A stretch of 63,161 nucleotides of DNA, the filler included. It is 3 parts of 3 records of this genome, joined end to end, with 100 filler letters (N's around TTAATTAATTAA, not from the genome) between each part and the next. Parts side by side here need not be neighbours in the genome. Positions count along the whole stretch, not along the records: positions 1 to 30,426 come from DRR723986_5790; 2 more parts are not named here. One strand, written 5' to 3'. A model generated the notes under the pieces. The model was not told where the DNA came from, did no database searches, and saw only the letters and a program-made list of their open reading frames with translations. Shown piece after piece: positions 2,516-30,526 of this stretch (the first letter of the stretch is position 1; each line of letters opens with the position of its first letter). Position numbers and translations under genes: made by a program.

Positions 2516-3010
2516 CTACTCAGCGGCTGCGTCTTTCTTGCAGCATTCCTTCTCGCAGCCCTCTTCGCACTGCCCTTCAGTAGCCTTGCAGCACTCTTTC
2601 TCACAACCTTCTTCACAGGTCGCTTCAGCAGCTTTGCAGGAACCATCGCACTCGCCATCTTCGCAGCAAGCTTCAGCCGCTTCGCTGCAAGATCCGTCGC
2701 ACTCACCTTCAGAGCAGCAAGGCCCCTCAGTGCAAGCAGCACCTTCTGAACAGGTCGCTGCTTCACCAGAGCAGCAACTGCCCGAGCAACTTTCCTTTGA
2801 GTCCATGCAGCACGTTGTGCAGCACGCATCTTCACCTTCGCAGCAGTCACACGGTCCGCCTGCTGCACAACTGCAGTCGCATTCGACATTGCTACAATCG
2901 CACAGTTCACAACAACCTGCAGGAGCTTCACCCCCAGCTTGCTGAGAAACGTAGAGTCCACCGACCAACAACAGTGCAACCGCACCAACACCTAGTACTT
3001 TTGAAAGCAT
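2516..3010 (-). CDS. Exported Cys-rich, acidic, metallothionein-like protein
   Basis: N-terminal hydrophobic signal/anchor, then 35 Cys in CC/CxC/CxxxC patterns with many Glu/Asp and no aromatic residues in the mature part; internal repeats; own terminator. Confidence 0.8.
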   Translation of the reverse strand: MLSKVLGVGAVALLLVGGLYVSQQAGGEAPAGCCELCDCSNVECDCSCAAGGPCDCCEGEDACCTTCCMDSKESCSGSCCSGEAATCSEGAACTEGPCCSEGECDGSCSEAAEACCEDGECDGSCKAAEATCEEGCEKECCKATEGQCEEGCEKECCKKDAAAE

Positions 3011-13296: not shown

Positions 13297-15621
13297 ATGT
13301 CGACCCAAACAGTTGAAGCTGGCAACGCCTCGAACGAAGCGACCGATACCAGCGGCATGGACTCCTTTTCGTACGATGACAAAATCGTGCGAATGTTTGT
13401 TACTGCGACGATCATTTGGGGCTTGGTGGGTACGCTCGCTGGCTTGATCGTCGCTGTCCTGCTGGTTTATCCATGGCTGACCGGTGGGCTACCGTGGCTG
13501 TCGTTTGGGCGTCTGCGGCCGCTACACACCAACGCGGCTATCTTCGCATTCGCTGGCAACGCCGTCTTCGCAGCAATTTACTACAGCACCCAGCGGCTCT
13601 GCAAAGCGAGAATGTGGAGCGACACTCTCAGCCACCTGCACTTTTGGGGCTGGCAAGCAATCATTGTCGCTGCCGCGATTACCCTGCCTCTGGGCATCAC
13701 ACAAAGTAAAGAGTACGCCGAACTTGAATGGCCCATCGATATCGCGATAGCCGTTGTTTGGCTGGTCATCTTTGGTGGCAACTTCTTGATGACGCTCATC
13801 AACCGTCGTGAGCGGCACATGTACGTCGCACTTTGGTTCTACATTGCGACCATCGTCACAGTGGCCCTGCTTCACGTATTCAACAACTTGGTCATTCCAA
13901 TTGGACCAACCAATAGTGCATCGATTTACGCCGGAGTTCAAGACGCATTCATGCAGTGGTGGTATGGCCACAATGCGGTCGCGTTCTTTCTGACGACGCC
14001 GTTTCTCGGCATGATGTACTACTTCCTGCCCAAGGCGGCCGAACGTCCAGTATTTAGCTACAAGCTGAGTATCATCCACTTCTGGTCGCTAGTCTTCATT
14101 TACATCTGGGCCGGTCCTCACCACTTGCACTACACGTCGCTTCCCGAGTGGGCAAGCACACTTGGCATGCTGTTCAGCTTGATGCTTTGGATGCCTAGCT
14201 GGGGTGGAATGATCAATGGTCTGTTGACCTTACGTGGCGCTTGGCACAAAGTTGCTGCAGACCCAATCCTGAAGTTCTTTGTCGTTGGCGTAACCTTCTA
14301 CGGAATGGCAACTTTCGAAGGCCCACTGCTTTCGATCAAGAGCGTCAATGCTCTTAGCCACTATACTGACTGGACGATCGCCCACGTCCACTCCGGTGCA
14401 CTAGGCTGGAACGGTTTCATGACGTTTGGCATGATCTACTGGCTGCTACCGCGATTGTTCCAGACCAAGATGTGGAGCGACAAACTTGTCAGCATGCACT
14501 TCTGGGTTGGAACGCTCGGAATCCTGCTATACATCATCCCGATTTATGCTGCAGGCCTCATGCAAGGCTTGATGTGGCGTGCCATCGATCAAACGACGGG
14601 GCAGCTCAGCTACCCTGACTTCGTAGAAACGACTCAGAGCATCATTCCTCTCTGGCAGCTTCGTATCCTTGGTGGGCTACTGTACGTTGCCGGCGTTGTC
14701 ATGATGGCTTGGAACGCCTTGATGACCTGGATGACTCGGCCTAGCGTTTACGAAGTCCCAGTCATCACCGCACCTCGTTTGGCAAAGACTTATACCGAAG
14801 AGACTCAAGCCGAGACTACGGAACTTGCCGGTGCACCTGTACTAGAACTGGGCAAGAAGCTGGACATCTGGGCCAAGATGGGCTGGCACAGGAGCTGGGA
14901 ACGTTTGCCGGTTAAGTTTACGATTCTGACGACGCTCGCCGTCGTGATTGCATCACTGTTCGAGTTCATCCCGACGTTTTTGATCCGAAGCAACGTTCCA
15001 ACGATCGCAACCGTCCAGCCTTACACGCCCCTGGAACTTGCCGGTCGTCACCTGTACATTTCCGAAGGCTGTTACAACTGCCACTCGCAACAGATTCGGC
15101 CAATGGTTGCCGAAACAAAGCGTTACGGCGAATACAGCAAGCCCGGCGAGTTCATCTACGACCGACCGTTTCAGTGGGGCAGCCGCCGCATTGGTCCTGA
15201 CCTGGCCCGCGAAGGCGGAAAGCAGAGTAGCTTCTGGCACTGGACACACTTCGAGAATCCGCAGAAAGCGGTTACTGGATCTGTGATGCCCGAATACGCC
15301 TACTTGCTCGACGAAGACATTAAATTCGAAGCGATTCAGCAGTTGGTCGACACGGCCCACCTGCTCGGAGCACCGTACGACGAAGAGCTGACCGATGCTG
15401 CGGAGATTGCCCGGCGTCAAGCAGAATATATCGCTGCGGACATTGTCTCTCAGGGCGGTCCAGCGGGTGTACACGAAAAGCAAGCCATTGCTCTGATCGC
15501 CTACATCCAAAGGCTTGGCACGGACTACTTTAAGACCGAGGAGCCTGCGGAAGAACAGGCAGACGAAGCCGAGCCATCCGATACACCGGATGAAGCCGAA
15601 ACGGTTGCACTCAATAACTAA
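13297..15621 (+). CDS. ccoN: cbb3-type cytochrome c oxidase, fused subunits I/II (CcoN-CcoO)
   Basis: RLRPLHT, WWYGHNAV, GPHHLH and AHVH heme-copper ligands; C-terminal CcoO domain with CYNCHSQ and WGSRRIGPDL. Confidence 0.97.
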   Translation: MSTQTVEAGNASNEATDTSGMDSFSYDDKIVRMFVTATIIWGLVGTLAGLIVAVLLVYPWLTGGLPWLSFGRLRPLHTNAAIFAFAGNAVFAAIYYSTQRLCKARMWSDTLSHLHFWGWQAIIVAAAITLPLGITQSKEYAELEWPIDIAIAVVWLVIFGGNFLMTLINRRERHMYVALWFYIATIVTVALLHVFNNLVIPIGPTNSASIYAGVQDAFMQWWYGHNAVAFFLTTPFLGMMYYFLPKAAERPVFSYKLSIIHFWSLVFIYIWAGPHHLHYTSLPEWASTLGMLFSLMLWMPSWGGMINGLLTLRGAWHKVAADPILKFFVVGVTFYGMATFEGPLLSIKSVNALSHYTDWTIAHVHSGALGWNGFMTFGMIYWLLPRLFQTKMWSDKLVSMHFWVGTLGILLYIIPIYAAGLMQGLMWRAIDQTTGQLSYPDFVETTQSIIPLWQLRILGGLLYVAGVVMMAWNALMTWMTRPSVYEVPVITAPRLAKTYTEETQAETTELAGAPVLELGKKLDIWAKMGWHRSWERLPVKFTILTTLAVVIASLFEFIPTFLIRSNVPTIATVQPYTPLELAGRHLYISEGCYNCHSQQIRPMVAETKRYGEYSKPGEFIYDRPFQWGSRRIGPDLAREGGKQSSFWHWTHFENPQKAVTGSVMPEYAYLLDEDIKFEAIQQLVDTAHLLGAPYDEELTDAAEIARRQAEYIAADIVSQGGPAGVHEKQAIALIAYIQRLGTDYFKTEEPAEEQADEAEPSDTPDEAETVALNN

Positions 15622-15653
15622 ACTCACCCTACCCCAAGAATTGGATCCCAACT

Positions 15654-15833
15654 GTGGTTAAAGACCTAGTCAGAGCACTCGATTATTCGAACTTTGCCGT
15701 AGAAGCTCTGATCCTATTCGTAGTCGCTTTTTTGGCCATCGTTTTCGGCGCATTGCGGCTGAGTAAGAAATCAACGGAAAGCTTTGCGGCAATCCCCCTG
15801 AGCGATAAAGTGGAGACTCCACGCGATGAATAA
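15654..15833 (+). CDS. ccoQ: cbb3 oxidase subunit CcoQ
   Basis: 59-aa ORF (GTG start) MVKDLVRALDYSNFAVEALILFVVAFLAIVFGALRLSKKSTESFAAIPLSDKVETPRDE: one TM helix plus an A-x-x-P-L motif; overlaps the ccoP start. Missing from the ORF track. Confidence 0.8.
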   Translation: MVKDLVRALDYSNFAVEALILFVVAFLAIVFGALRLSKKSTESFAAIPLSDKVETPRDE

Positions 15834-16482
15834 TCCTGATCCAGTGACAACCGGCCACGCTTACGATGGCATCCAAGAATTTGACAACCCGCTGCCGGGA
15901 TGGTGGAAGTGGATGTTCGTTGGCTCGATCGTCTTCAGTGTTTTCTACGCCATGTATTTTCATGTAGGTGCACCAGGCCGTACGGTAGCCGACCAGTACG
16001 ACCGCGAACTCGACGCGGTCACTCGACTGCTGTACGACCAGATTGGCGACCTAGAAGGTGACGAGCAGACGCTCACCAAATACATGCTGGAAGATTCCTG
16101 GATGAAGGTTGGGCAGGGCATCTACAAGACGAACTGCATCTCATGTCATGGGGCTCAGGCCGAAGGCAAAATCGGCCCAAACCTGACCGACGAAGCCTTC
16201 AAGAACATTCGCAAGATCGAAGACATCGTTCGCGTCATCCGCAAGGGTGCTGCTAAAGGTGCAATGCCTGCCTGGGAAAACCGATTGGCTCAAAACGATA
16301 TCGTCCTGGTCTCTGCCTACATCGCATCATTGCGAGGCGAGAACGTTCCAGGGAAAGATCCAGAGGGAAGCCAGATTGCACCGTGGCCAGAGTATCAAGG
16401 CCCGCCCGCCGGGGAAGAGGAAGCCGAAGACAACGATGGCGACGCTCAAGGTGACCAAGCGAAGGCCGACGCCGAAGGTTAG
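15826..16482 (+). CDS. ccoP: cbb3 oxidase subunit III (monoheme CcoP)
   Basis: HAYDGIQEFDNPLPGWW N-terminal motif; a single CISCH; GPNLTD; MPAW. Confidence 0.92.
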   Translation: MNNPDPVTTGHAYDGIQEFDNPLPGWWKWMFVGSIVFSVFYAMYFHVGAPGRTVADQYDRELDAVTRLLYDQIGDLEGDEQTLTKYMLEDSWMKVGQGIYKTNCISCHGAQAEGKIGPNLTDEAFKNIRKIEDIVRVIRKGAAKGAMPAWENRLAQNDIVLVSAYIASLRGENVPGKDPEGSQIAPWPEYQGPPAGEEEAEDNDGDAQGDQAKADAEG

Positions 16483-16710
16483 GCCTCGGCAGGAGCTAGG
16501 CAACTAGCACGCCAGAACTCAACGCCAAGACTCAACGACCGGAACACTGCATGCAGATGGGGGGATCGCCCAGAATGGGCCTCTAAAACGTAGGGACGCG
16601 TATCCCCCATCTGCATCGCATGTTGTTCGTCGCACGAAGCTTCACGAACAAAACGCTACACCGCACAGCCAAACCGCCTTACGCCGAACCGCGAACAAGA
16701 TTGCATTGAC

Positions 16711-18282
16711 ATGGACACTGGAGCACAACTGCCAACGGTTAACACCAGCGAGAAGAAAAAATCTTGCTCGGGAACCTGCGCAGGCTGCGCTGCCAAACGC
16801 GAAAAGGCGGCGCTGGAAGCCGCTGCGGCGATTGGCGGAGAATCGTCCAAAGATGCCGCTTCTGGTGGTTGCGGCGGTCACGACAAGCAAACTTCTGCTC
16901 AAGAACCGCTTCTTGACGCACCGGAGCATGTCCTTAGCACGCTGGAAAAGGATGGCACCCGTCGATGGATCAAGCCAACACTTTCAAAAGGACTGTGGTG
17001 GAATCGCCGCCGGATCCTCGCCTATGTGTTGATGGTGATTTTCGTTGCCGTTCCGCATATCCACATCTTTGGTAAACCACTGATTCGGCTCGACATCACC
17101 GCTCGTCAGTTTACGATCTTTGGCCACACTTTCTTGCCCACCGACACGCTGCTATTAGCGCTCGTCATGCTGACCGCTTTTGTGAGCATCGTCTTCATTA
17201 CCAGCGTCGCAGGACGTGCGTGGTGCGGCTGGGCATGTCCACAGACGGTCTACATCGAATACCTGTTCCGCCCCATCGACCGCCTCTTTGAAGGAACGGT
17301 CGGAAAAGGCGGCAATGCAAAGAAACAGCTTTCTGCACCGGCACAGTTTGCCCGATTCGGTGTCTATGTGGTGCTCAATATGTTTTTGGCACACACGTTC
17401 TTGGCATACTTCGTCGGTCCGGAAAAACTTTCCGAATGGATATTCAGCTCGCCGTTTGAACATCCCGTTGCGTTTATCGTTATGGCTGCAACGACGGGAT
17501 TGCTCACATACGATTTCTTTTTCTTCCGCGAACAGACCTGCATGATCGCTTGCCCTTACGGGCGATTCCAGTCGGTCATGCTCGATCGCCAATCGTTGAT
17601 CGTTGCCTACGATTACAACCGTGGCGAACCCAGAAAGAAGGGCAAACCAGCGGGCGGCACTTCTGGGCACTGCGTCGATTGCAACCAGTGCGTTCGTGTT
17701 TGCCCAACCGGAATCGACATTCGCGACGGCTTGCAAATGGAGTGCATCAACTGCACGCAGTGTATCGATGCCTGTGACGACGTAATGTCCAAAGTGGGTC
17801 TTCCTCAAGGTCTGATCCGTTACACTTCGGAAGATGCCTTGGCTGGCAAGAAGCGGAAATTCCTTCGCGCACGCACGATCGCTTACCCTTTGATTCTGGT
17901 TGTCCTTGTTTCGGGCCTCGCTGTGGCGCTCTCACAGAAGTACAGCTTTGACGCTCGTATCATTCGTGGTAAGGGTGCACCGTTTAACAAAGTTGAACGT
18001 GGCGTTGCGTCGAACAGCTTCAATGTCCGGCTGGTCAATCGAACCGACGAACAACAAACTTATACCTTCGCCATTGACTCGCCCGCAAAGGCTACCGTTG
18101 AAGTAGTCGACAAGAGCGTTCTGACTATTGGCGCTGGTGAATCAGAACTAGTGCCCGTGTATGTCACCTTCCCGAACTACCTGACCACCGGCGACGGCAG
18201 CGCTCCAGTCACATTCAAAATCACCGACTCTGCCGGCAACGAGCGGACTCCTGAATCTACGCTCTTAGGGCCACGACAATGA
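16711..18282 (+). CDS. ccoG: cbb3 accessory 4Fe-4S protein CcoG
   Basis: GRAWCGWACPQT, CMIACPYGRFQ, CVDCNQCVRVCPTGIDIR and CINCTQCIDAC motifs; C-terminal Ig-like domain. Confidence 0.95.
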   Translation: MDTGAQLPTVNTSEKKKSCSGTCAGCAAKREKAALEAAAAIGGESSKDAASGGCGGHDKQTSAQEPLLDAPEHVLSTLEKDGTRRWIKPTLSKGLWWNRRRILAYVLMVIFVAVPHIHIFGKPLIRLDITARQFTIFGHTFLPTDTLLLALVMLTAFVSIVFITSVAGRAWCGWACPQTVYIEYLFRPIDRLFEGTVGKGGNAKKQLSAPAQFARFGVYVVLNMFLAHTFLAYFVGPEKLSEWIFSSPFEHPVAFIVMAATTGLLTYDFFFFREQTCMIACPYGRFQSVMLDRQSLIVAYDYNRGEPRKKGKPAGGTSGHCVDCNQCVRVCPTGIDIRDGLQMECINCTQCIDACDDVMSKVGLPQGLIRYTSEDALAGKKRKFLRARTIAYPLILVVLVSGLAVALSQKYSFDARIIRGKGAPFNKVERGVASNSFNVRLVNRTDEQQTYTFAIDSPAKATVEVVDKSVLTIGAGESELVPVYVTFPNYLTTGDGSAPVTFKITDSAGNERTPESTLLGPRQ

Positions 18283-18815
18283 CAACCACAGTTGGACGCT
18301 TTCAGCAGACACTCTCCCAAGAAGAAATCCTGGTCGAGCGACGCGCTCGTAGGTTTTGGGTCGGCTTGGTCGTTGGGTTGCTTGGCCTGCAAATCGCAAT
18401 CGGCGTGTTCAGCGTGACACTCGCTCTGGGCGACCCAACCGTTGCGGTCATCCCGAACTATCACCAGAACGCGGTCAATTGGGACACGACGCGGCGAGCA
18501 CTTCAGCTCACCGAATCACTGGGGCTGAGCGTTGTCGCCGACGCACCCATGGCGGCAGGCAATGAGGACAAACGCCTCTTGGTTGTCCAGTTGAGAGACG
18601 CCGACGGGTACACACTCAATGACGTCAACATACACGCCAAAGTCTTCCATCATGCCGACGGAAAAACGGTTCATAACATCCAACTGAAACAAGTCGCCAA
18701 CGGCAACTACGTTGGCCTGACAGGTCTGACTCAACCAGGGATTTGGCAACTGGAACTTAGGATGGAGGGTGAGCACGGCGTGGCGGCAATCTCGCGTGAG
18801 TTGAACGTTGAATAG
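18279..18815 (+). CDS. ccoH: FixH/CcoH-family protein
   Basis: One TM helix, then NYHQNAVNWD and a YtkA/FixH-like Ig fold ending GIWQLEL; 4-nt overlap with ccoG. Confidence 0.8.
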   Translation: MTTTVGRFQQTLSQEEILVERRARRFWVGLVVGLLGLQIAIGVFSVTLALGDPTVAVIPNYHQNAVNWDTTRRALQLTESLGLSVVADAPMAAGNEDKRLLVVQLRDADGYTLNDVNIHAKVFHHADGKTVHNIQLKQVANGNYVGLTGLTQPGIWQLELRMEGEHGVAAISRELNVE

Positions 18816-18865
18816 CCGCGTCAGTTTGAGACCGACAGTTTAACCAGCGAAGAACAACGCCAGTC

Positions 18866-19978
18866 ATGTGGATCCTACTTTCAGCGATTGCAACCGCCAG
18901 TTTCCTGGGCAGCATGCACTGCGTTGGAATGTGTGGACCGCTTGCGCTCTGGGCAGGAGGAGCCGCGGAGCAGCGCCGCCGCAGTGAACAAACGCTTGCT
19001 ACGACAACCTACCATCTTGGCCGGCTAACTACGTACGCAATTGTCGGCTTGCTAGCTGGTTACCTTGGAAGCCTGGCTGACTTAGGCGGCAATGCGCTTG
19101 GCATCCAACTGGTCGCTGCCCGGCTGGCTGGGGTCGCCATGATTGCGGCTGGCCTTTACCAATTGAACGCCTACGCAAAGTCGAAGGGCTTTTCTCTTGC
19201 TAGATTCAGTCTCGGCACTCGAAGCGGTACCTCAAGTGGCGGCAATGGCCCCGCTGTCGATCAAGCATCACCACCGCATGCCATCCAACCACCCAAACCG
19301 GGTCTAATCACGGGGCTACTGATTCGCCTCCGCCCGATTATCTTCAAACAGCCTGTTGCACTCCGGGGCCTGCTAACCGGGTTGCTGACGGTGCTGCTCC
19401 CCTGTGGCTGGCTCTATATTTTCGCACTTGCTGCTGCTGGGACAGGAAACGCCATAAGCGGCGCCCTTGTGATGGCGGCATTTTGGCTCGGCAGCGTCCC
19501 CGCTCTGGTTGGCTTGGTAGCCGGAAGTGCTTGGTTTGGGACTCGAGTCCGTCCGTTAGTGCCGATCCTGGGAGCGATTGTTCTTCTCATCGGTGGCGGC
19601 TACACAGCCATGGGACGTGGTTTTGCCGACATGAGTACACTCATCAAGATGCAACCCGTGAAGCTGGAGACTAGCACCGCGGACTCTGAAACGCCTCGTA
19701 CACCAAACACAAATTTGCACCAGCAGATCGACGTACTCACGTCAACGAAGCTCCCCTGTTGTGAGCACTGCCTTGAAGAGGTCGATAAACTTGAGGAGGC
19801 CGATAAAGCGGCGAACACCTCACAGCCAGAGTCACTGACGAAGGGCCGTAGCGACCATAATTCTGGAATCGGCGATGTGCGACATTCCAGCCCAGACAGC
19901 ACCGAATCGAGTGAGTCTACCGAACAGGGCGAGCCTACCGAACAGGGTGAGTCTACCGAACGGGGCGCTGCACAGTGA
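18866..19978 (+). CDS. DsbD_2/TauE-SafE-like membrane protein (cbb3 biogenesis)
   Basis: SMHCVGMCGP, YHLGRLTTY and LPCGWLY motifs; position within the cco operon. Confidence 0.88.
   Translation: MWILLSAIATASFLGSMHCVGMCGPLALWAGGAAEQRRRSEQTLATTTYHLGRLTTYAIVGLLAGYLGSLADLGGNALGIQLVAARLAGVAMIAAGLYQLNAYAKSKGFSLARFSLGTRSGTSSGGNGPAVDQASPPHAIQPPKPGLITGLLIRLRPIIFKQPVALRGLLTGLLTVLLPCGWLYIFALAAAGTGNAISGALVMAAFWLGSVPALVGLVAGSAWFGTRVRPLVPILGAIVLLIGGGYTAMGRGFADMSTLIKMQPVKLETSTADSETPRTPNTNLHQQIDVLTSTKLPCCEHCLEEVDKLEEADKAANTSQPESLTKGRSDHNSGIGDVRHSSPDSTESSESTEQGEPTEQGESTERGAAQ
19913..19966 (+). repeat. 3 x 18-bp in-frame tandem repeat
   Basis: GAGTCTACCGAACAGGGC / GAGCCTACCGAACAGGGT / GAGTCTACCGAACGGGGC, encoding E(S/P)TE(Q/R)G. 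Confidence 0.9.
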
Positions 19979-22761
19979 GTTCCTCGAGCATGCAACGCGG
20001 CGTCATTGCAGATGCGGATTTTACATTGCCTCCGGCCACCGATCCCGCTCCAGATAGCTCGTCAACTACCGATGCGGAAGCCAGTCGCGAGGTGTCCGAG
20101 AGAATCGAAACCTCCTGCAGCGCTGGTCCGCAGATTACCCAACTGCCCTGTGTCCACTGTGGCCAATCAACACGAGTCGCCCAGGGTCATGATCCAGCGA
20201 AGGTCTTCTGCTGCAATGGATGCCTGGGGGCGTATCAACTGATTCACGGCTGGGGGCTAGAGGATTTTTACTCCCTTCGTGACAACATGAAGCTGACGGC
20301 AGCGCCGCTGGCTGCGAAGCAGGGAATCCGCTTCGAACAGTTCGACTCCGTCGAATTCCTGGGACCGTCAGCTCCGAAAGAACAATCTGATGGAACGCAT
20401 CGCGCCGAACTTGCCATTCAGGGACTGCACTGCGCGGCTTGTGCCTGGTTGATTGAGAAAGCCGCTCGTGCTCAGCCAGGCTTACTTGCGGCTCAAGTGA
20501 AGATGAACCAGCACACGGTGCTCTTGGTTTACGATCCTGGCCAAACCCGGCTAAGTGAAATTACAAAATTTTTTGATCAGCTCGGTTATCAGCTTAGCCC
20601 ATTTGATCCGAGCAAAGACACCCACCTGCACTCCGAGAGTCGCCGACAACTTGTTCAGATTGCGATCGCTGGCTTTCTGGCCGCCAACGCCATGTGGCTG
20701 GCCGTGGCTTTATATGCACAAGAGTTTGCAACTGTGGCTGCGGAGCATCGCTACTTTATGACGCTGGTCGGAACAGCCCTTGGCTTGTCATCCGTTGCGG
20801 GCCCCGGACGGACTTTCTTGAAAGGCGCTCTGACGGCGATCAAGAACCGAACGCCTCACATGGATTTGCCCATCGCCTTGGGACTGAGCGTCGGTGCAAC
20901 GGTTGGGACAATCAACGCTATTCGCGGAACTGGCGACGTCTATTTTGACTCAGTCGCAACACTCGTGTTCTTTCTTCTGATTGGCCGATGGATTCAGTTT
21001 CGACAACAGCAACGGGCGGCGCGTACCGTCGATCTACTCCTCCGCATTACGCCTCGTCATGCGACGCTCGTTCGTAACGGCGAACAAAAGAGTGTACTGG
21101 TGGATCGATTGTGTGCGGGCGATATTATTCTCGTTGGTGCCGGAGAAGCGATAGCCGCTGATGGTGTGGTCACTTCTGGCATCACACAGCTCGACCGATC
21201 TCTGATCAGTGGTGAGAGTGTCCCTGTTCGAGCAACCACAGGGGACGCCGTGCTGGCTGGCGTGATCAACGTCGCTTCGCCGATCGAAGTACGCGTTGAA
21301 GCGACTGGCAACGAGAGTCGCATCGGCAAAGTTATGCAATCGGTTGAATCGGCAGCCTCCGAGAAGACACCGATCGTTCTGCTGGCTGACCGAATCGGTG
21401 GGTACTTTGTCATTAGCGTGCTTGTTCTTGCGGTAATCACATTTGCGTTTTGGGCGGGAAGTGATCTTAGCGCAGCGACCCTCAATTCCACTGCGCTGCT
21501 GATCGTCGCATGTCCATGTGCACTGGCTCTGGCAACACCACTGGCAATTGCAGTCTCACTCGGACGTGCTGCTGGCATTGGAGTCCTGGTCCGCAGTGGT
21601 GAAGCGATTCAGAAATTAAGCGGTCGCGGTCAAATCTGGCTCGACAAGACAGGCACATTAACCGAGGGCAAGCAACGCGTCACTAGTTTTCACGGGTCCA
21701 CGGCTGCTCTGAAGCTGGCTGCAGCAACCGAAATCAACTGCATGCACCCCGTGGCGAAAGCCATCGTTGAGCACGCCAACGACCGACAACTTGAGTATGA
21801 AGACCTAACGCTTGATGACACAGTAGTCGTCGCCGGTGGCATCATTGGCCACTTCGCAGGCAATCACGACAGCGCTAGAACTGGTGTCGAGCAAGCCAAT
21901 CGCACGACCGTCGTAGTTGGCAACCAACAGCTTGTGGCCGACCAACTGAATAACTCTGACAAACCGACCTCACATGATGTTTTTGGGTTGGACGCAGCAG
22001 CGCCATTGAGATCAGCGCCTGTAAGTTCAACGTCCGCCAAGTCAGCGGGTAAGAACAATCCATTGCGCAAAACGGACGAACCAAAATCTTGGAGGCAGCT
22101 TGCAGAGGAAATGGCGGCCAATGGTGAAAGCCCTATCCTGATCGCGGTTAATGGATCAGTGGCGGCGATTCTTGGGATATCGGACCCGATTCGACCGGAT
22201 GCGGCTGAGACCATTCGTCGCTTGAAAAATCTGTCGTGGAAAGTCGGCATCTTGAGCGGTGACCACAGCACCATCGTTGGGCACGTCGCAGAGAAGGTTG
22301 GCATCGATCTCGCGGAATGCACTGGCGACATGACACCCGAAGACAAGCTTGCAGTCATTCGCCGGACAATGACGAACAACAACGAACCTTCAGAGAATAG
22401 CAATACAAAGACCGTCGTCATGGTAGGCGATGGAGCAAACGATGCTGCGGCACTGGCTGCCGCCGACGTTGGAATTGCGATCCGTGGCGGTGCGGAAGTG
22501 AGCTTGCAGGCCGCAGAGGTATTTGTGGCTGATGGACATTTGAGCCGAATTAGTGATTTGATACGCGGTTCGCGTCGCACACACAGACTTATTATCGCTG
22601 CCTTAAGTGTGTCACTAGGCTACAATTTATTTGCGGTCTCCCTTGCCACTCTCGGTTGGATCAGCCCGTTGGTTGCGGCCATCCTGATGCCGCTCAGCAG
22701 TGTTTCAGTACTCGGACTGATTTTGGCTGCTCGGACGTTTCCAAACAAATCAATACACTAG
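19975..22761 (+). CDS. ccoI: Cu-translocating P1B-type ATPase CcoI
   Basis: N-terminal CVHC/FCCNGC and HCAAC metal motifs; CPCAL, DKTGT, HP, GDGAND, YN and MPLSS motifs. Confidence 0.93.
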   Translation: MSSSSMQRGVIADADFTLPPATDPAPDSSSTTDAEASREVSERIETSCSAGPQITQLPCVHCGQSTRVAQGHDPAKVFCCNGCLGAYQLIHGWGLEDFYSLRDNMKLTAAPLAAKQGIRFEQFDSVEFLGPSAPKEQSDGTHRAELAIQGLHCAACAWLIEKAARAQPGLLAAQVKMNQHTVLLVYDPGQTRLSEITKFFDQLGYQLSPFDPSKDTHLHSESRRQLVQIAIAGFLAANAMWLAVALYAQEFATVAAEHRYFMTLVGTALGLSSVAGPGRTFLKGALTAIKNRTPHMDLPIALGLSVGATVGTINAIRGTGDVYFDSVATLVFFLLIGRWIQFRQQQRAARTVDLLLRITPRHATLVRNGEQKSVLVDRLCAGDIILVGAGEAIAADGVVTSGITQLDRSLISGESVPVRATTGDAVLAGVINVASPIEVRVEATGNESRIGKVMQSVESAASEKTPIVLLADRIGGYFVISVLVLAVITFAFWAGSDLSAATLNSTALLIVACPCALALATPLAIAVSLGRAAGIGVLVRSGEAIQKLSGRGQIWLDKTGTLTEGKQRVTSFHGSTAALKLAAATEINCMHPVAKAIVEHANDRQLEYEDLTLDDTVVVAGGIIGHFAGNHDSARTGVEQANRTTVVVGNQQLVADQLNNSDKPTSHDVFGLDAAAPLRSAPVSSTSAKSAGKNNPLRKTDEPKSWRQLAEEMAANGESPILIAVNGSVAAILGISDPIRPDAAETIRRLKNLSWKVGILSGDHSTIVGHVAEKVGIDLAECTGDMTPEDKLAVIRRTMTNNNEPSENSNTKTVVMVGDGANDAAALAAADVGIAIRGGAEVSLQAAEVFVADGHLSRISDLIRGSRRTHRLIIAALSVSLGYNLFAVSLATLGWISPLVAAILMPLSSVSVLGLILAARTFPNKSIH

Positions 22762-22785
22762 TTCATTCACCAGAAGACATTCGCG

Positions 22786-22956
22786 ATGAGCGTACTTTAC
22801 CTTGCACTTCCAGTCGCACTGCTGCTCGGCGGTGGTGGACTGATTGCATGCATTTGGTGCATTCGCGGTGGTCAGTACGACGATGTCGACACTCCACCGC
22901 TCCGTATGCTACTCGACGACGATACTCCCACTCCCAAGAAGTCGGAAGAGAAATGA
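22786..22956 (+). CDS. ccoS: cbb3 assembly protein CcoS
   Basis: 56-aa ORF MSVLYLALPVALLLGGGGLIACIWCIRGGQYDDVDTPPLRMLLDDD... with the W-x-x-x-x-GQYDD signature. Missing from the ORF track. Confidence 0.9.
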   Translation: MSVLYLALPVALLLGGGGLIACIWCIRGGQYDDVDTPPLRMLLDDDTPTPKKSEEK

Positions 22957-24266
22957 CTTTGAAAATTCGAAACAACTGGACCACCAGTCTCGGCCTAGCA
23001 GTCGCCACGCTCGTGCTGGCTGGTTGCGGCACGCGTGAACCAAAGACGCTTGAATTTGAACCGAACATGGTATTCTCGCATGCCCTGGAAGTCGGCGGCA
23101 TCAGCGACGTCCCGATGGCACCGGTGCTCGATCAGACTACTGCCATTCTGACGGACTATTTCGGAACCCCCGAAGAGCCCAAGCTGCCCGACTTCATGAC
23201 CAGCGATGAAGAAGAATACGGTGAGTACCTTGAACTTGTCGACATCGAGAACTTAAAGCTTGCCTGTGGTGTGCCAGATGAAAACGGCGAAGGCGGGCTG
23301 TATCGCCGATTGCTTTGCACAAGCTGCCACGGAACAACTGGTAACGGCCGAGGCGAAGCCGCCGCGACTCTGGTTGCCTATCCACGCGACTACCGCATGG
23401 GAGTCTTTAAGTTCAAGACGACTGACGGACAAGCCAAACCACTTCGAGAGGATTTGTCGCGCATCATCCGCAACGGCATCCCTGACGTGGCAATGAATCC
23501 GCTGACGAAATCGACCGAAGAGGAAATCGAGGCGCTGACCGACTATGTCATCTACCTTTCCTGGCGAGGTCAGCTCGAGCGGATGATCCTTTACGAATCA
23601 CCTGATCTTTTCGCTGAACCGGAAGAAGACGAAACGGCCGAAGAGAAGCAAGAACGCCTGGAAGAGCGTGAAGAGTGGATTCAAGACCTCTGTATTGAGA
23701 TTGCCGAAGAATGGCTGTACGCCGAAGATGACATTTACGAGGTGCCGGAGCGCCCCGAGGACTTCCCCGTGCCCGACACGATTGACGAAGTTGTGGCCGC
23801 TGCCGCAGGTGGCGACTCACCTTTGAAGCAAAGCATTGAAAAGGGGCGGGAGATCTTCGCCACCGAACAGGCATCTTGCACAAAGTGCCATGGAAAGCTT
23901 GGTCATGGCAACGGTCTCGGAAAGTATTTTGACGACTGGACCAATGACTGGACCGTCAAAATGGGGCTCGACCCACTGGACTACGATTCACTCGTGCCAC
24001 TGATTGCCCGAGGCGCCCTGCCACCGCGTTACATCGACCCTCGTGATTTTCGTGACGGGACGTTTCGCGGCGGATCGACTCCGGAAGACATCTACCACCG
24101 TATCTCGCGTGGTATCGCAGGAACCCCAATGCCAAAAGCAAAGCTTGAAGAAGATGAAATTTGGCACCTAGTGAATTTCGTTAGGTCGCTACGTGTCAAG
24201 AATCCACTCGACGAACCCGCCTCGGCTGAAGATGCTGAGGAAGTGGCTGATGAGGTGGCCGAGTAA
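22953..24266 (+). CDS. Diheme cytochrome c lipoprotein
   Basis: ATG overlaps the ccoS stop (ATGA); lipobox LAGC; two heme motifs CTSCH and CTKCH, each followed by PRD(Y/F)R and a distal Met (AMNP, TPMP). Confidence 0.85.
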   Translation: MTLKIRNNWTTSLGLAVATLVLAGCGTREPKTLEFEPNMVFSHALEVGGISDVPMAPVLDQTTAILTDYFGTPEEPKLPDFMTSDEEEYGEYLELVDIENLKLACGVPDENGEGGLYRRLLCTSCHGTTGNGRGEAAATLVAYPRDYRMGVFKFKTTDGQAKPLREDLSRIIRNGIPDVAMNPLTKSTEEEIEALTDYVIYLSWRGQLERMILYESPDLFAEPEEDETAEEKQERLEEREEWIQDLCIEIAEEWLYAEDDIYEVPERPEDFPVPDTIDEVVAAAAGGDSPLKQSIEKGREIFATEQASCTKCHGKLGHGNGLGKYFDDWTNDWTVKMGLDPLDYDSLVPLIARGALPPRYIDPRDFRDGTFRGGSTPEDIYHRISRGIAGTPMPKAKLEEDEIWHLVNFVRSLRVKNPLDEPASAEDAEEVADEVAE

Positions 24267-24668: not shown

Positions 24669-25262
24669 ATGGCCAGATTACAATTCAACGACCTTCCCGC
24701 GGAACTAAAGCGAAACAGCAAAGGCTACAAACTTCAAACTGGCGATGTCCTCTTCTCCGAAGGGTTCTCGGCAGACTCGGTCTACTTCGTCGAAACCGGT
24801 TGCGTCCGCATGGTGGTCCATCCATGCGACGGGAAAGAACTGGTTCTGTTTCGTGCTCGCGATGGCGAGACGTTCGCTGAAGAACACGTGATGTCGGACA
24901 CTTGTGGTTACACCGCGATTGCGGACAAAGATACGAGCCTGCGGTCCGTAAGCGCAGAGTTACTTCGGGAGCTGATAATGCCCGACGCGCACGTCATGAA
25001 CTCGTACCTGAACACCATCGGATTCCGCATGCAGCAATTGCGGCAGAACTTTGAACGGCTCGCGCTACCCTCTGCCAGCGCAAAAGTGCTCCACTTGTTA
25101 TCTAGTCTTTCCGAGGGCAATGAGCCTCTCAATTTAGCGGGACGGGTCAAAACGTTTGCATCCGACTTGAATTTGACGCACGAAACAATGTACCGAACTC
25201 TGAAGACCCTAGAGGAACGAGGTGATATTGAGAGGGAAAATGGTTGGGTTAGAGTCTTATAG
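24669..25262 (+). CDS. Crp/Fnr-family transcriptional regulator
   Basis: cNMP-binding-type beta-barrel (LFSEG, GETFAE) plus C-terminal HTH ASDLNLTHETMYRTL; GGAGA RBS; no N-terminal Fnr Cys cluster. Confidence 0.88.
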   Translation: MARLQFNDLPAELKRNSKGYKLQTGDVLFSEGFSADSVYFVETGCVRMVVHPCDGKELVLFRARDGETFAEEHVMSDTCGYTAIADKDTSLRSVSAELLRELIMPDAHVMNSYLNTIGFRMQQLRQNFERLALPSASAKVLHLLSSLSEGNEPLNLAGRVKTFASDLNLTHETMYRTLKTLEERGDIERENGWVRVL

Positions 25263-25324
25263 GTGGTCATGAGAGGGGTTGCAGTCACGCCAATTAGATT
25301 TCTTTGAATAAAAGTTTGCACCGA

Positions 25325-25340
25325 TATGACGGCGGTCATA
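25325..25340. promoter_or_regulatory. Perfect palindrome TATGAC-N4-GTCATA, candidate Crp/Fnr operator
   Basis: 6-4-6 dyad with Fnr-box geometry, 64 nt upstream of the cytochrome P460 start and just downstream of the Crp/Fnr gene. Confidence 0.65.
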
Positions 25341-25404
25341 CTACACATACTTGCGTCGCCCTAGTATCTGAGCCTCTTCAAACTCTTTACAGGGGAATAT
25401 TGCG

Positions 25405-26520
25405 TTGAAACTGACAAGAATGACACTAAGCCTCGCCTGCGCGACGCTACTTGGTCTTGCCGTGTCGGCAACCGAGACGCGCGCCGACGACGTGGAAGCC
25501 CTTAACGGGTCCGGCCCACGGTACAGTGAAGACGGCCAACTGATGAGGCCGCAAGGTTGGCGAAAGTGGGTGTACATCGGCACGCCGCTTACGCCCCACG
25601 ACATGAATGACGGGAAAGCTGCCTTCCCCGAGTTTCACAATGTTTACATTGATCCCGAAAGCTTTGCGACTTTCGAACGTACGGGTGAATTCCCGAACGG
25701 GACACAGATCGTGAAAGAGCTTGTCTTGGTTGGTTCCAAGTCAGCGGTCAGCGGCAACGGCTACTTCATGGGCGAATTCGCTGGACTTGAAGTTGCATTG
25801 AAGGACACCGAGCGGTTTAAGGACGAGCCTGGCGGATGGGCTTACTTCAGTTTCGGTCACGTAGCAGCCGACAAGTACGAAGCGACTGCCAAGCCGTTTC
25901 CTGCCGAGAGCTGCAATGCGTGTCACCAGGCTAGCGCTGACTACGACTATGTCTTCCTTCAGTACTACCCAGTGCTACGCGCTGCGATGCCGAAGAAAAT
26001 GATGATGAAAGCCGCCGATGCGCAGGCGTCGATGAAGAAGATGGACGCAAAATCCATGGCAACCGCCATGGGCGCTGTCGGTGAATCGGACTCGAGCGAA
26101 TCGTCTGGTTCGAGCGAAGAAGAGTACTCCATGAAGCTCTTCAAGTGGCTTCAAGGTGGTGGCTACAAGAGCTACAAGGCTGAATCAGCGGTTCACCCAT
26201 CTAGCTCAGGCCCTGCAGTGCACGGCGACGTTCGTATCTTCGTGAACGACAAACTGGACGCGAGCATGATGGCGGGCAACGACAAGCACCCAACCGGCTC
26301 CGTTGTTGTCAAAGAGCTTCACAAAGACGGTGAAATGTACGGCTGGGCTGCCATGATCAAAGCCCGCGAAGACGATGGTAAAGGCAATGGATGGTATTGG
26401 TACGAAGTTTTGAGCACGACCAATCCTGAGAACCCAGTTGCTGCTTCACTTGGCAACCAGACCTGCGTTGGTTGTCACGCACCTGGACGCGATTTTGTTC
26501 GCATCGGTGCGATCAAGTAA
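25405..26520 (+). CDS. Cytochrome P460-family protein with two tandem heme domains
   Basis: Signal peptide. Domain 1: WRKWVYIG...FHNVYIDP...GTQIVKEL...GLEVALKD...GGWAYF...CNACH...YYPVL. Met-rich linker. Domain 2: GSVVVKEL...GWAAMIK...GWYWYE...CVGCH. Confidence 0.88.
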   Translation: MKLTRMTLSLACATLLGLAVSATETRADDVEALNGSGPRYSEDGQLMRPQGWRKWVYIGTPLTPHDMNDGKAAFPEFHNVYIDPESFATFERTGEFPNGTQIVKELVLVGSKSAVSGNGYFMGEFAGLEVALKDTERFKDEPGGWAYFSFGHVAADKYEATAKPFPAESCNACHQASADYDYVFLQYYPVLRAAMPKKMMMKAADAQASMKKMDAKSMATAMGAVGESDSSESSGSSEEEYSMKLFKWLQGGGYKSYKAESAVHPSSSGPAVHGDVRIFVNDKLDASMMAGNDKHPTGSVVVKELHKDGEMYGWAAMIKAREDDGKGNGWYWYEVLSTTNPENPVAASLGNQTCVGCHAPGRDFVRIGAIK

Positions 26521-26857
26521 GCTTGTACAGAAGCTATCACTTGGAATTCGACTGGCGGTGTCAGCTCTGGTTGGCGCCGCCAGTTTTTCGTTTGCTACCG
26601 CATTGTCGCCAAAGTGCCAGCTCGCCCAAACGTGATTTCTCACAGCCAAGCCTACTCGGCCCAACGTTTTCGGCAGCGCAAACTGCTGGCGTGCAATTCA
26701 CTATGACTCGCCTAGATTACGGTCTCGCAACCTGTTCTACGACCAGCGGAATACGCTAAGATCTCCCGCAGCGAAGTGCAAGTAAATCCAGTGCGCCAGG
26801 TTCGTTCACGGCGGGCGCAAATGAGATGGTAGCGAATTCTATTCAGGAGAAACGCGG

Positions 26858-28474
26858 GTGGGTGAGTCGATCAAGGTTGCGAGCTGGAGCCAATTAAAAG
26901 ATCGAGAGCCGACGTACGCACTCGCGGGCGAGGTCGACTTGGTCGTCATCCGTTACGACGACAGTGTATCGGTGCTGTACGGCCGCTGCCTCCACCGTGC
27001 GGCGCTGATGAGCGACGGGCACGTGGAAGGCAACAATCTTTTCTGCGGCTTGCACAACTGGGACTATCGGATCGACACTGGAGTCAGCGAGTACAACAAC
27101 TCGGAGGCTCTCCACAAGTTCAACGCAACCGTTGAAGGCGACGACGTACTCGTCAGCGCATCAGAAATTGCTGCCTTTACCACAGAACATCCTCAGCCGT
27201 TCAAGCGCGACGAGTACCTCGGGCTGTATCAGGACATCCACGGCAGCCCTGAAGAGCCTCACAACAACTATGTCCAAACGCTTGCTCAAAAGGGCAAAGA
27301 AGGAATCGGCCATCACGGTCCCGTGTCGTCGATGGGCGTCCCCGCGCCGGAGCTGCCCCAGTGGAGGGATTTGCAATTCGTGACCGCACAACTTGCTCGC
27401 AAACCAATGCTAGATGATGAATCCGTTGGTACCGAACTGGTAATCGGCCCACAAGCCGCAAAGCCGCTGAAGCTGAAGATTCCACTTTTCGTTTCCGACA
27501 TGTCCTTCGGTGCACTCAGCGAAGAAGCCAAGATCGCAATGGCTCAAGGTGCCGAGTTGGCTGGAACGGGCATCTGCAGCGGTGAAGGTGGCATGCTGCC
27601 AGAAGAACAAGCCGCTAACAGCCGCTACTTCTACGAGCTGGCCTCCGGACGTTTCGGCTTCTCGATCGACAAGGTCAAGAAATGCCAAGCCTTCCACTTC
27701 AAAGCTGGACAGGGCGCGAAGACCGGAACCGGCGGGCACCTTCCTGGCGAAAAGGTGGTTGGCAAAATTGCAGCCGTCCGCGAACTCGACGAAGGTCAGG
27801 ATGCAATCAGCCCCGCGCGTTTCCCCGATTTCGATGGGGTCGAAGATTATCGCCGGGTTGCGTCTGAGGTCCGCGAGGCCACGGGTGGAATTCCGATTGG
27901 TGTCAAAATGTCCGCCCAGCATATCGAAGACGACATCGATTTTGCCTTGGAAATCGGTGTCGACTACATCATCATCGATGGCCGAGGTGGTGGGACCGGT
28001 GCGGCTCCCGACGTTTTCAAGAACAACATTTCGGTACCGACGATGGCAGCCATCGCTCGTGCCCGATTGCATCTGGACCATCGCGGCCCAAGCGACGTTA
28101 CACTAATTGGCACCGGAGGCCTGCGAACCGACGCCGATTTCGCAAAGGCAATGGCACTTGGAGCCGACGGAATTGCCATCTCCAACTCTGCAATGCAGGC
28201 AATCGGCTGCTTAGGCATGCGAGCCTGCTCGACCAACAACTGCCCGGTCGGCATCGCGACTCAGAAGGAAAACCTGCGGGCTAGGCTGAAGATTGCCGCT
28301 TCAGCAAAACGACTTCAGAATTTCTTCGAAGCTTCGACGCAACTCATGGTTGTACTCGCACGAGCTTGCGGACACGACCACCTCAACAAATTCACTCCAA
28401 CTGATCTAACAACTTGGAAACGCGAGATTGCCGACCTGACCGGCGTGCGATACGCCGGCATCGGACGCCGCTAA
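26858..28474 (+). CDS. Rieske 2Fe-2S domain fused to FMN-binding glutamate synthase-like domain
   Basis: Rieske CLH...CGLH; Glu_synthase motifs MSFGALS, SGEGG, KAGQGAK, DGRGGGTGAAP, GGLRT; 3Fe-4S motif CLGMRACSTNNCP. GTG start with AGGAG RBS. Confidence 0.9.
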   Translation: MGESIKVASWSQLKDREPTYALAGEVDLVVIRYDDSVSVLYGRCLHRAALMSDGHVEGNNLFCGLHNWDYRIDTGVSEYNNSEALHKFNATVEGDDVLVSASEIAAFTTEHPQPFKRDEYLGLYQDIHGSPEEPHNNYVQTLAQKGKEGIGHHGPVSSMGVPAPELPQWRDLQFVTAQLARKPMLDDESVGTELVIGPQAAKPLKLKIPLFVSDMSFGALSEEAKIAMAQGAELAGTGICSGEGGMLPEEQAANSRYFYELASGRFGFSIDKVKKCQAFHFKAGQGAKTGTGGHLPGEKVVGKIAAVRELDEGQDAISPARFPDFDGVEDYRRVASEVREATGGIPIGVKMSAQHIEDDIDFALEIGVDYIIIDGRGGGTGAAPDVFKNNISVPTMAAIARARLHLDHRGPSDVTLIGTGGLRTDADFAKAMALGADGIAISNSAMQAIGCLGMRACSTNNCPVGIATQKENLRARLKIAASAKRLQNFFEASTQLMVVLARACGHDHLNKFTPTDLTTWKREIADLTGVRYAGIGRR

Positions 28475-30426: not shown

Positions 30427-30526
30427 NNNNNNNNNNNNNNNNNNNNNNNNNNNNNNNNNNNNNNNNNNNNTTAATTAATTAANNNNNNNNNNNNNNNNNN
30501 NNNNNNNNNNNNNNNNNNNNNNNNNN
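30427..30526. other. Artificial contig spacer
   Basis: 44 N + TTAATTAATTAA (stops in all six frames) + 44 N. Confidence 0.99.

Follow-up and report, generated by a model that had tools for sequence, protein, structure and literature searches.

Background

Cytochromes P460 make the greenhouse gas N2O and are, to our knowledge, one of two enzyme types that oxidise haem-bound hydroxylamine; we know of no natural oxidant for them.

In the literature consulted, the characterised members each consist of one domain, come from ammonia or methane oxidisers and were assayed with artificial oxidants, and cytochromes P460 are described throughout as homodimers with one haem per monomer (PMC11928373, PMC6427953, PMC10318465, PMC12352625, PMC5872139). 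Three features of the haem pocket are named for activity, namely the crosslink lysine, a distal carboxylate and a capping residue (PMC11928373). The parts of that 2025 review available to us (PMC11928373) make no mention of fusion, tandem, two-domain, diheme or planctomycete P460s. We found no description of a fused form or of a His-capped member in the open-access literature, where supplements (for instance the sequence lists of PMC6427953) could include some. What we report is a conserved fusion of a P460 with a second subfamily of the same fold, and in our opinion this second subfamily is the most interesting part.

The gene and its product

The gene lies on the plus strand of a stretch of 63,161 nucleotides joined from three contigs (the window hereafter), as do all its parts, the adjacent regulator gene and the hairpin discussed below. 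Its open reading frame, 25405..26520, is uninterrupted and encodes 371 amino acids from a TTG start, with an alternative ATG at 25420. The reading agrees with full-length homologues, and the protein carries two CxxCH motifs and two haem domains per chain. A basic start, a hydrophobic core and a cleavage site at about residues 22-27, all judged by eye, make a Sec signal peptide probable at 25405..25485, and the product would thus appear to be an exported two-haem protein. The closest named homologue, 97% identical, belongs to an Aureliella sp. MAG, which bears out the planctomycete affiliation proposed in the first-pass annotation. NCBIfam contains no model of the protein.

Domain 1 (D1, 25522..25992) is a Nitrosomonas-type cytochrome P460, as judged by phmmer, Pfam and structure matching, and domain 2 (D2, 26116..26517) is a member of the P460 fold with a putative His cap, as judged by Pfam, its model and structure matching. 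The two are 23% identical. Between them lies a linker of 42 amino acids (25990..26115), in which two predicted Met/Ala-rich helices (pLDDT about 88-93 in the full-length model) are followed by a Ser/Glu-rich loop. The confident helices, together with a full-length pTM of 0.78, hint at a defined packing of the two domains in the model. A prediction of the complex (two D1-plus-linker chains, one D2 and three haems, homologue alignments unused) scored 0.13 against a mark of 0.34, which speaks neither for nor against a contact between D1 and D2. We also considered a linker methionine as a haem ligand and rejected it: linkers with at least two Met occur in 84 of 85 two-domain proteins, and none of these Met residues is invariant.

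The first-pass annotation had described two P460-like domains in one chain, and both indeed pass the cut-off of the Pfam family Cytochrome_P460 (PF16694, 27 bits). Its positions for the Lys, Glu, Ala and CxxCH codons are all correct.

Domain 1

D1 exceeds the Pfam cut-off by far (98.9 bits). Its best sequence match in the PDB is 6E0X, the active A131E variant of the AL212 protein (phmmer E 6e-52), and 2JE2, the Nitrosomonas europaea P460, matches at E 2e-51. The D1 model superposes on 8GAR with Z 19.3 and rmsd 2.4 over 147 aligned residues. D1 has the five-stranded beta-sheet P460 fold with a C-terminal CxxCH (CNACH, 25912..25926), and it keeps a largely invariant inter-subunit loop, SGNGYF, of a type described as reaching the partner subunit.

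All three residues that the review names for activity are present. Lys104 (25714..25716) aligns with the KE of 2JE2 and 6E0X and is conserved in 151/151 of the D1-type domains taken from the homologue list. Glu129 (25789..25791) stands in the column that is changed in AL212 A131E and A131Q and that holds Glu in N. europaea, and it is Glu in 149 of the 151. The capping Phe74 and the neighbouring His78 (25624..25638), which align with Phe76 and His80 of AL212, are each found in 151/151. The AL212 A131E variant reaches roughly half the rate of the N. europaea enzyme (PMC11928373). Given this activity and the conservation of lysine, carboxylate and cap, D1 is, on sequence grounds, very likely a competent P460. 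Since D1 has His at the Arg44/His80 site, as AL212 does, it can be seen as a natural counterpart of the engineered A131E enzyme.

Domain 2

D2 passes the Pfam cut-off at 31.9 bits, while its matches to the PDB by sequence are individually weak (E 0.13-0.3). Its model (pLDDT 94.3), compared with 48,161 chains, matches only the five P460/c'-beta representatives, at Z 8.7-12.1, with the next fold at 4.8; the alignments are at Z 12.1, rmsd 2.9 and 119 residues with c'-beta 8BRK, and at Z 10.0, rmsd 3.1 and 119 residues with Methylococcus capsulatus P460, 6HIU. The model has an N-terminal helix and neither the long strand 3-4 loop nor the C-terminal helix. The haem motif is CVGCH (26464..26478).

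The weak sequence alignments place Lys303 (26311..26313) on Phe61 of M. capsulatus c'-beta, the column changed in the F61V entry, and Ala315 (26347..26349) on Gly82. According to the table of the review (PMC11928373), these two c'-beta residues correspond to the crosslink and base positions. A comparison of D1 and D2 profiles (probability 94%) gives the same register, with KE on KE and GLE on GWA. The asymmetry noted in the first-pass annotation is supported: the proton-relay position is a Glu in D1 and an Ala in D2.

Conservation was counted over 174 fused and 143 unfused D2 domains. Lys303 is kept in 174/174 and 136/143 (310/317 together), and it occupies the position at which c'-beta proteins typically carry a hydrophobic residue. 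The distal carboxylate is absent: Ala, Ser, Gly or Val stands at position 315 in 174/174 fused domains, with no Glu or Asp among them, and Ala in 117/143 unfused ones. Two histidines in the capping-loop region before the strand VRIFVN (26194..26223) are conserved as well, His273 in 174/174 fused and 139/143 unfused domains and His264 in 169/174 and 128/143. By register His273 falls within one residue of c'-beta Phe32, in a loop whose length varies in the family, and we infer from this that it would be placed over the haem iron. The review gives Phe or Arg as the capping residue of all solved members (PMC11928373). Finally, Val276 (26230..26232; Val in 173/174 fused and 118/143 unfused domains) appears to take the place of AL212 His80, N. 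europaea Arg44 and M. capsulatus P460 Arg50, if the register is extended by one residue. The R44A change blocks spontaneous crosslinking in N. europaea P460 (PMC11928373); with Val at this helper position, the Lys-haem crosslink of D2 may not form.

Is D2 then a D1 that lost its catalytic residue? With E up to 0.001, 1,755 representatives match a D2 profile, and with E up to 1e-30, 214. The best 150 of them comprise 137 single-D2 proteins, seven D2-D2 proteins and six fusions with D1, and many start with lipoprotein-like signals as judged by a crude pattern. D2 occurs at E up to 1e-10 in 42 of 301 genomes of the phylum of a Myxococcota locus. Around 20 unfused D2 loci we found neither a D1 within about 6 kb nor any neighbours in common. 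Among 21 genomes with a strong D2 match, whose completeness is not established, 19 have no D1-type P460 match, and the other two carry fusions. As D2 is mostly found in single-D2 proteins, with no D1 nearby and usually no D1 match in the genome, the sequences indicate that it is an autonomous subfamily and not a crippled duplicate of D1.

This changes one claim of the first-pass annotation, which had taken D2 to be non-catalytic on the model of AL212. For a subfamily that often stands alone, with a near-invariant His273 and a Val276 in the pocket, inactivity like that of AL212 does not follow.

Some distant P460-fold proteins (L117, L118, L119, L121, L122 and L124) also combine a lysine at the crosslink site with a histidine just before the second strand. 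In view of this pattern, much of PF16694 may consist of His-capped forms that are still unexplored.

Distribution and integrity of the fusion

A fusion seen in one assembly might be an accident of that assembly. No N letters occur inside the gene, the nearest contig spacer starting at 30427, and a contig of another strain (run X2), covering 24872-26364, bridges the regulator, the promoter, D1, the linker and most of D2 without a gap in the reading frame. D2 is fused behind D1 in 114 of the 120 homologues listed: 84 are D1-D2 and 30 D1-D1-D2, next to three D1-D1 proteins and three with one motif. The best 80 of 543 genome loci contain 71 intact D1-D2 and six intact D1-D1-D2 genes (77/80), three pairs among the genome loci being near-duplicates. 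An assembly artefact is excluded by these findings. Both lists are ranked by full-length match, so these counts are not the share of fusions among all P460s.

The three remaining loci are interrupted. In L031 and L052, from two Acidobacteriota assemblies, a TGA replaces one and the same conserved Trp codon of D1, and L036 has a TAG in the linker; each may be an error or a pseudogene. Tandem proteins of a single domain type exist as well, D2-D2 in P0132, P0133, P0166, P0181, P0190 and P0254, and D1-D1 in P0089, P0092 and P0096. In eight of the 30 D1-D1-D2 proteins (P0021, P0032, P0034, P0035, P0039, P0043, P0050 and P0056) the linker before D2 contains a motif His-Asp-x-x-x-Cys-x-x-Cys, possibly a metal or disulfide site.

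Judged by record titles, the hosts fall into about nine phyla (Planctomycetota, Acidobacteriota, Gemmatimonadota, Bacteroidota, Verrucomicrobiota, Myxococcota, Pseudomonadota, Latescibacterota and Desulfobacterales). The fusion is therefore not special to this planctomycete, and it also exists as D1-D1-D2 and as D1-D2 accompanied by a separate D1, points that the first-pass annotation had missed. The latter arrangement, a D1 gene directly behind the fusion gene, is found at nine of the 80 loci, all nine in Bacteroidota, and in the tree the separate D1 often groups as the sister of the D1 that is fused in that genome. Such copies suggest repeated selection for more D1.

Trees of D1 and of D2 both split the Pirellulaceae-type fusions from the other fusions. 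We nevertheless do not claim two independent fusions, since an AU test on 50 rows leaves a single origin (p 0.31, not rejected); the test left out 15 unfused rows that fall within the larger fused clade or beside it, and its 24 other unfused rows were drawn at random.

Gene neighbourhood and regulation

Directly upstream, at 24669..25262, lies a gene for a Crp/Fnr-family regulator (a Pfam cNMP_binding match and a weak HTH_Crp_2 match), which is the candidate controller. Homologues of it occur within about 2 kb of the fusion at seven of 80 loci. Between regulator and fusion gene there is a perfect palindrome, TATGAC-N4-GTCATA (25325..25340), the sole exact match in the window and a candidate Crp/Fnr site. 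With at most two mismatches, such sites are found 190-360 bases before D1 in the window, at four of the seven regulator loci and in two of 13 close relatives without the regulator, against a background of 31 sites in 1.09 Mb. Two of the other regulator loci have sites with three mismatches and one has none. Among 40 listed of 220 differences between related strains, the sole one inside the palindrome falls in its spacer. A scan for sigma-70 promoters gave results at chance level. Directly after the stop codon a hairpin with a 16-pair stem and a T tail (26550..26595) is terminator-like by consensus match.

Around 81 fusion loci some genes recur: truncated globins at 11 (nine with signal-peptide-like starts by eye), MsrA at nine, MsrB at nine, AhpC-like proteins at six, a haem-binding domain protein at 12 and AraC regulators at 20. 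The globin, Msr and AhpC-like neighbours belong to a minority of loci and are absent from this window. The conserved globin with a signal-like start, often directly upstream of the fusion, is seen in L021, L034, L040, L048, L049, L052, L055, L064 and L019; L021 and L064 have a second globin without such a start.

The window itself holds further genes. A cbb3-type oxidase cluster (13297-24266) comprises a fused ccoN-ccoO, ccoP, ccoG, FixH, DsbD_2 and a heavy-metal ATPase; the next gene resembles that of a lipoprotein-type cytochrome c with two haems. Downstream, a Rieske domain is fused to a glutamate-synthase FMN domain (26858-28474), and the start of a similar gene lies about 2 kb from the fusion in L006. 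We rejected a functional link of the P460 fusion to either: neither is in the clusters common to at least three loci, a similar Rieske gene was recognised by eye in L006 only, and the hairpin stands after the P460 stop. An ORF of 164 amino acids at 2516-3010 on the minus strand starts like a signal peptide and continues as a repetitive, very Cys-rich body that by eye resembles a metallothionein. Beyond the second of the two contig spacers (30427-30526 and 56529-56628) the DNA has a GC content of 0.61 and ORFs of alphaproteobacterial appearance (by eye), in contrast to the planctomycete part, and it is possibly a foreign contig in the bin.

Possible functions

The reading that we prefer, and hold tentatively, is that the fusion is a periplasmic detoxifier of hydroxylamine and NO, in which D1 would oxidise NH2OH and D2 would be an open NO-handling haem site. 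On this proposal two pre-existing subfamilies were fused into an exported two-haem protein that detoxifies reactive nitrogen. D1 would form a Lys-crosslinked P460 haem, pair with another D1 and oxidise NH2OH with Glu129 as the proton relay, giving N2O without air, and NO or nitrite together with N2O in its presence. D2, which has no Glu route, would keep its distal site, with Lys303 and His273 in the lining, open for a small ligand, most likely NO from D1 or from neighbouring cells, and would hold it or pass it on. The distal His could equally be an iron ligand or a base. In the Pirellulaceae the gene may stand alone as a unit that the neighbouring Crp/Fnr protein switches by way of TATGAC-N4-GTCATA. 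As D2 occurs without D1 in unfused loci and in whole genomes, a self-sufficient ligand site fits better than an obligate relay. NO as the ligand is suggested by family precedent and by the neighbours; the Lys crosslink protects P460 haem against inactivation by NO (PMC5872139). Of the detoxifier idea in the first-pass annotation, we thus retain the part that agrees with the reactive-nitrogen and oxidative-stress neighbourhood in relatives, and give up D2 as a simply non-catalytic partner.

Where would the substrate come from? AmoA was found in none of 40 host genomes (a search without a positive control, in genomes whose completeness is not established), and the same 40 include six with HAO-like proteins, four with NirK above the cut-off and seven with full-length NrfA. 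An internal source of NH2OH or NO is hence not consistent among the hosts as sequenced, and since most have none of the usual enzymes that make these compounds, the substrate is probably external. The same finding also speaks against assigning D1 a natural substrate with any firmness.

An unlikely but serious rival is that D2 is a catalyst in its own right, with His273 (perhaps together with His264 or Arg277) as an acid-base group in place of Glu, and converts NH2OH or NO or acts like a peroxidase or oxidase. The fusion would then join two active sites, and the asymmetry would mean that the mechanism has changed and not that it was lost. As this rival would have it, D2 occurs alone and, whether fused or unfused, hardly ever departs from Lys and His; the P460 pocket of HAO uses His and Asp (PMC6427953), a peroxidase-like activity is known for N. 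europaea c'-beta (PMC11928373), and MsrA/B and AhpC-like genes are among the neighbours. However, according to the review a precisely placed carboxylate is a feature of all characterised active cytochromes P460, and even Glu-to-Asp abolishes activity, and the crosslink or its lysine suppresses the peroxidase-like activity of N. europaea P460 (PMC11928373). The geometry of His273, moreover, is read from the sequence register.

Somewhat more doubtful is the view that His273 is a sixth iron ligand and D2 a His/His electron-transfer haem, the built-in oxidant of D1, comparable to the extra haems of HAO. It would explain the invariant capping-loop His next to a small residue at the neighbouring pocket position, the pTM of the full-length model, which we take to be above expectation for two freely moving domains, and the forms with two D1 to one D2, which fit a common relay; NH2OH oxidation does need an external oxidant (PMC11928373). 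Yet it is hard to see why a relay should require an invariant Lys at the crosslink position, P460 haems lie near -340 to -425 mV and are poor acceptors (PMC11928373), and the 20 unfused D2 loci show no conserved redox partner. With the same degree of doubt we mention a bolder version, in which D2 is a third functional class of the P460 fold, with a Lys-crosslinked haem and a distal His, and serves D1 as a built-in oxidant, either a relay or an O2-reactive sink, which would make the fusion a self-sufficient hydroxylamine oxidase. If that were true, heterotrophs of about nine phyla would contain a hydroxylamine oxidase and be an unaccounted biological source of N2O and NO.

We consider it improbable that the fusion is a general haem protein of nitrosative or oxidative stress, with NH2OH not its natural substrate and no meaningful production of N2O even if D1 were active in vitro. 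AmoA, HAO, NirK and NrfA are indeed missing from most hosts, the neighbours are general stress genes, and the review regards the roles of c' and 'halfway house' proteins as unresolved (PMC11928373), but the catalytic residues of D1 are strictly conserved, which implies that their chemistry is under selection. It is next to impossible that the fusion arose in the assembly or that D2 is a decaying tandem copy of D1, even though the window consists of joined contigs with spacers at 30427 and 56529: the homologues, nearly all fused and intact, exclude the artefact, an independent contig bridges the linker, and D2 has diverged far from D1 and has invariant residues of its own.

On the preferred reading, non-nitrifiers may deal with toxic nitrogen compounds by means of the fusion, a route that would have been overlooked so far. 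Whatever reading is correct, it is a natural construct for two questions, the behaviour of a P460 haem that has no Glu and the cellular partner of a P460. Carriers are available in culture (Psychroserpens jangbogonensis, Joostella atrarenae, Winogradskyella maritima, Maribacter sp. and Roseibacillus ishigakijimensis), so that the D1-D2 fusion is directly testable. For annotation it follows that counts of PF16694 mix chemically different domains.

Comparison with known systems

D1 resembles N. europaea P460 (2JE2/2JE3/8GAR) and AL212 A131E (6E0X) in fold, Lys, Glu, capping Phe, C-terminal CxxCH and helix, and long inter-subunit loop. The known proteins are single-domain homodimers of ammonia oxidisers with one haem per chain, whereas D1 here carries a second haem domain and its hosts show no AmoA in the 40 genomes searched without a positive control.

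Wild-type AL212 P460 (6AMG), which has the Lys crosslink and Ala131 and is inactive, shares with D2 the Lys at the crosslink position and the Ala at the base position. The two differ in other respects: identity over the structural alignment is about 22%, and D2 has neither the Phe76/His80 pocket nor the long strand 3-4 loop nor the C-terminal helix, but an N-terminal helix, His264/His273 and Val276.

The best structural matches of D2 are the c'-beta proteins (7EAD/8BRK, 6HIH, 7S5O) and M. capsulatus P460 (6HIU), at Z 9.4-12.1, which are likewise compact and without a C-terminal helix, and D2 and c'-beta have in common a small residue at the base position. The c'-beta proteins differ in having Phe or Met for the Lys and Phe or Arg as the cap, and M. 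capsulatus P460 in having Asp102 and Arg50. A His cap, as proposed for D2, is seen in none of the six proteins that the review tabulates (PMC11928373).

With HAO the likeness is one of concept, in that the catalytic P460 haem shares its chain with further haems and the pocket contains a His; HAO has an unrelated fold, a Tyr crosslink and eight haems per subunit.
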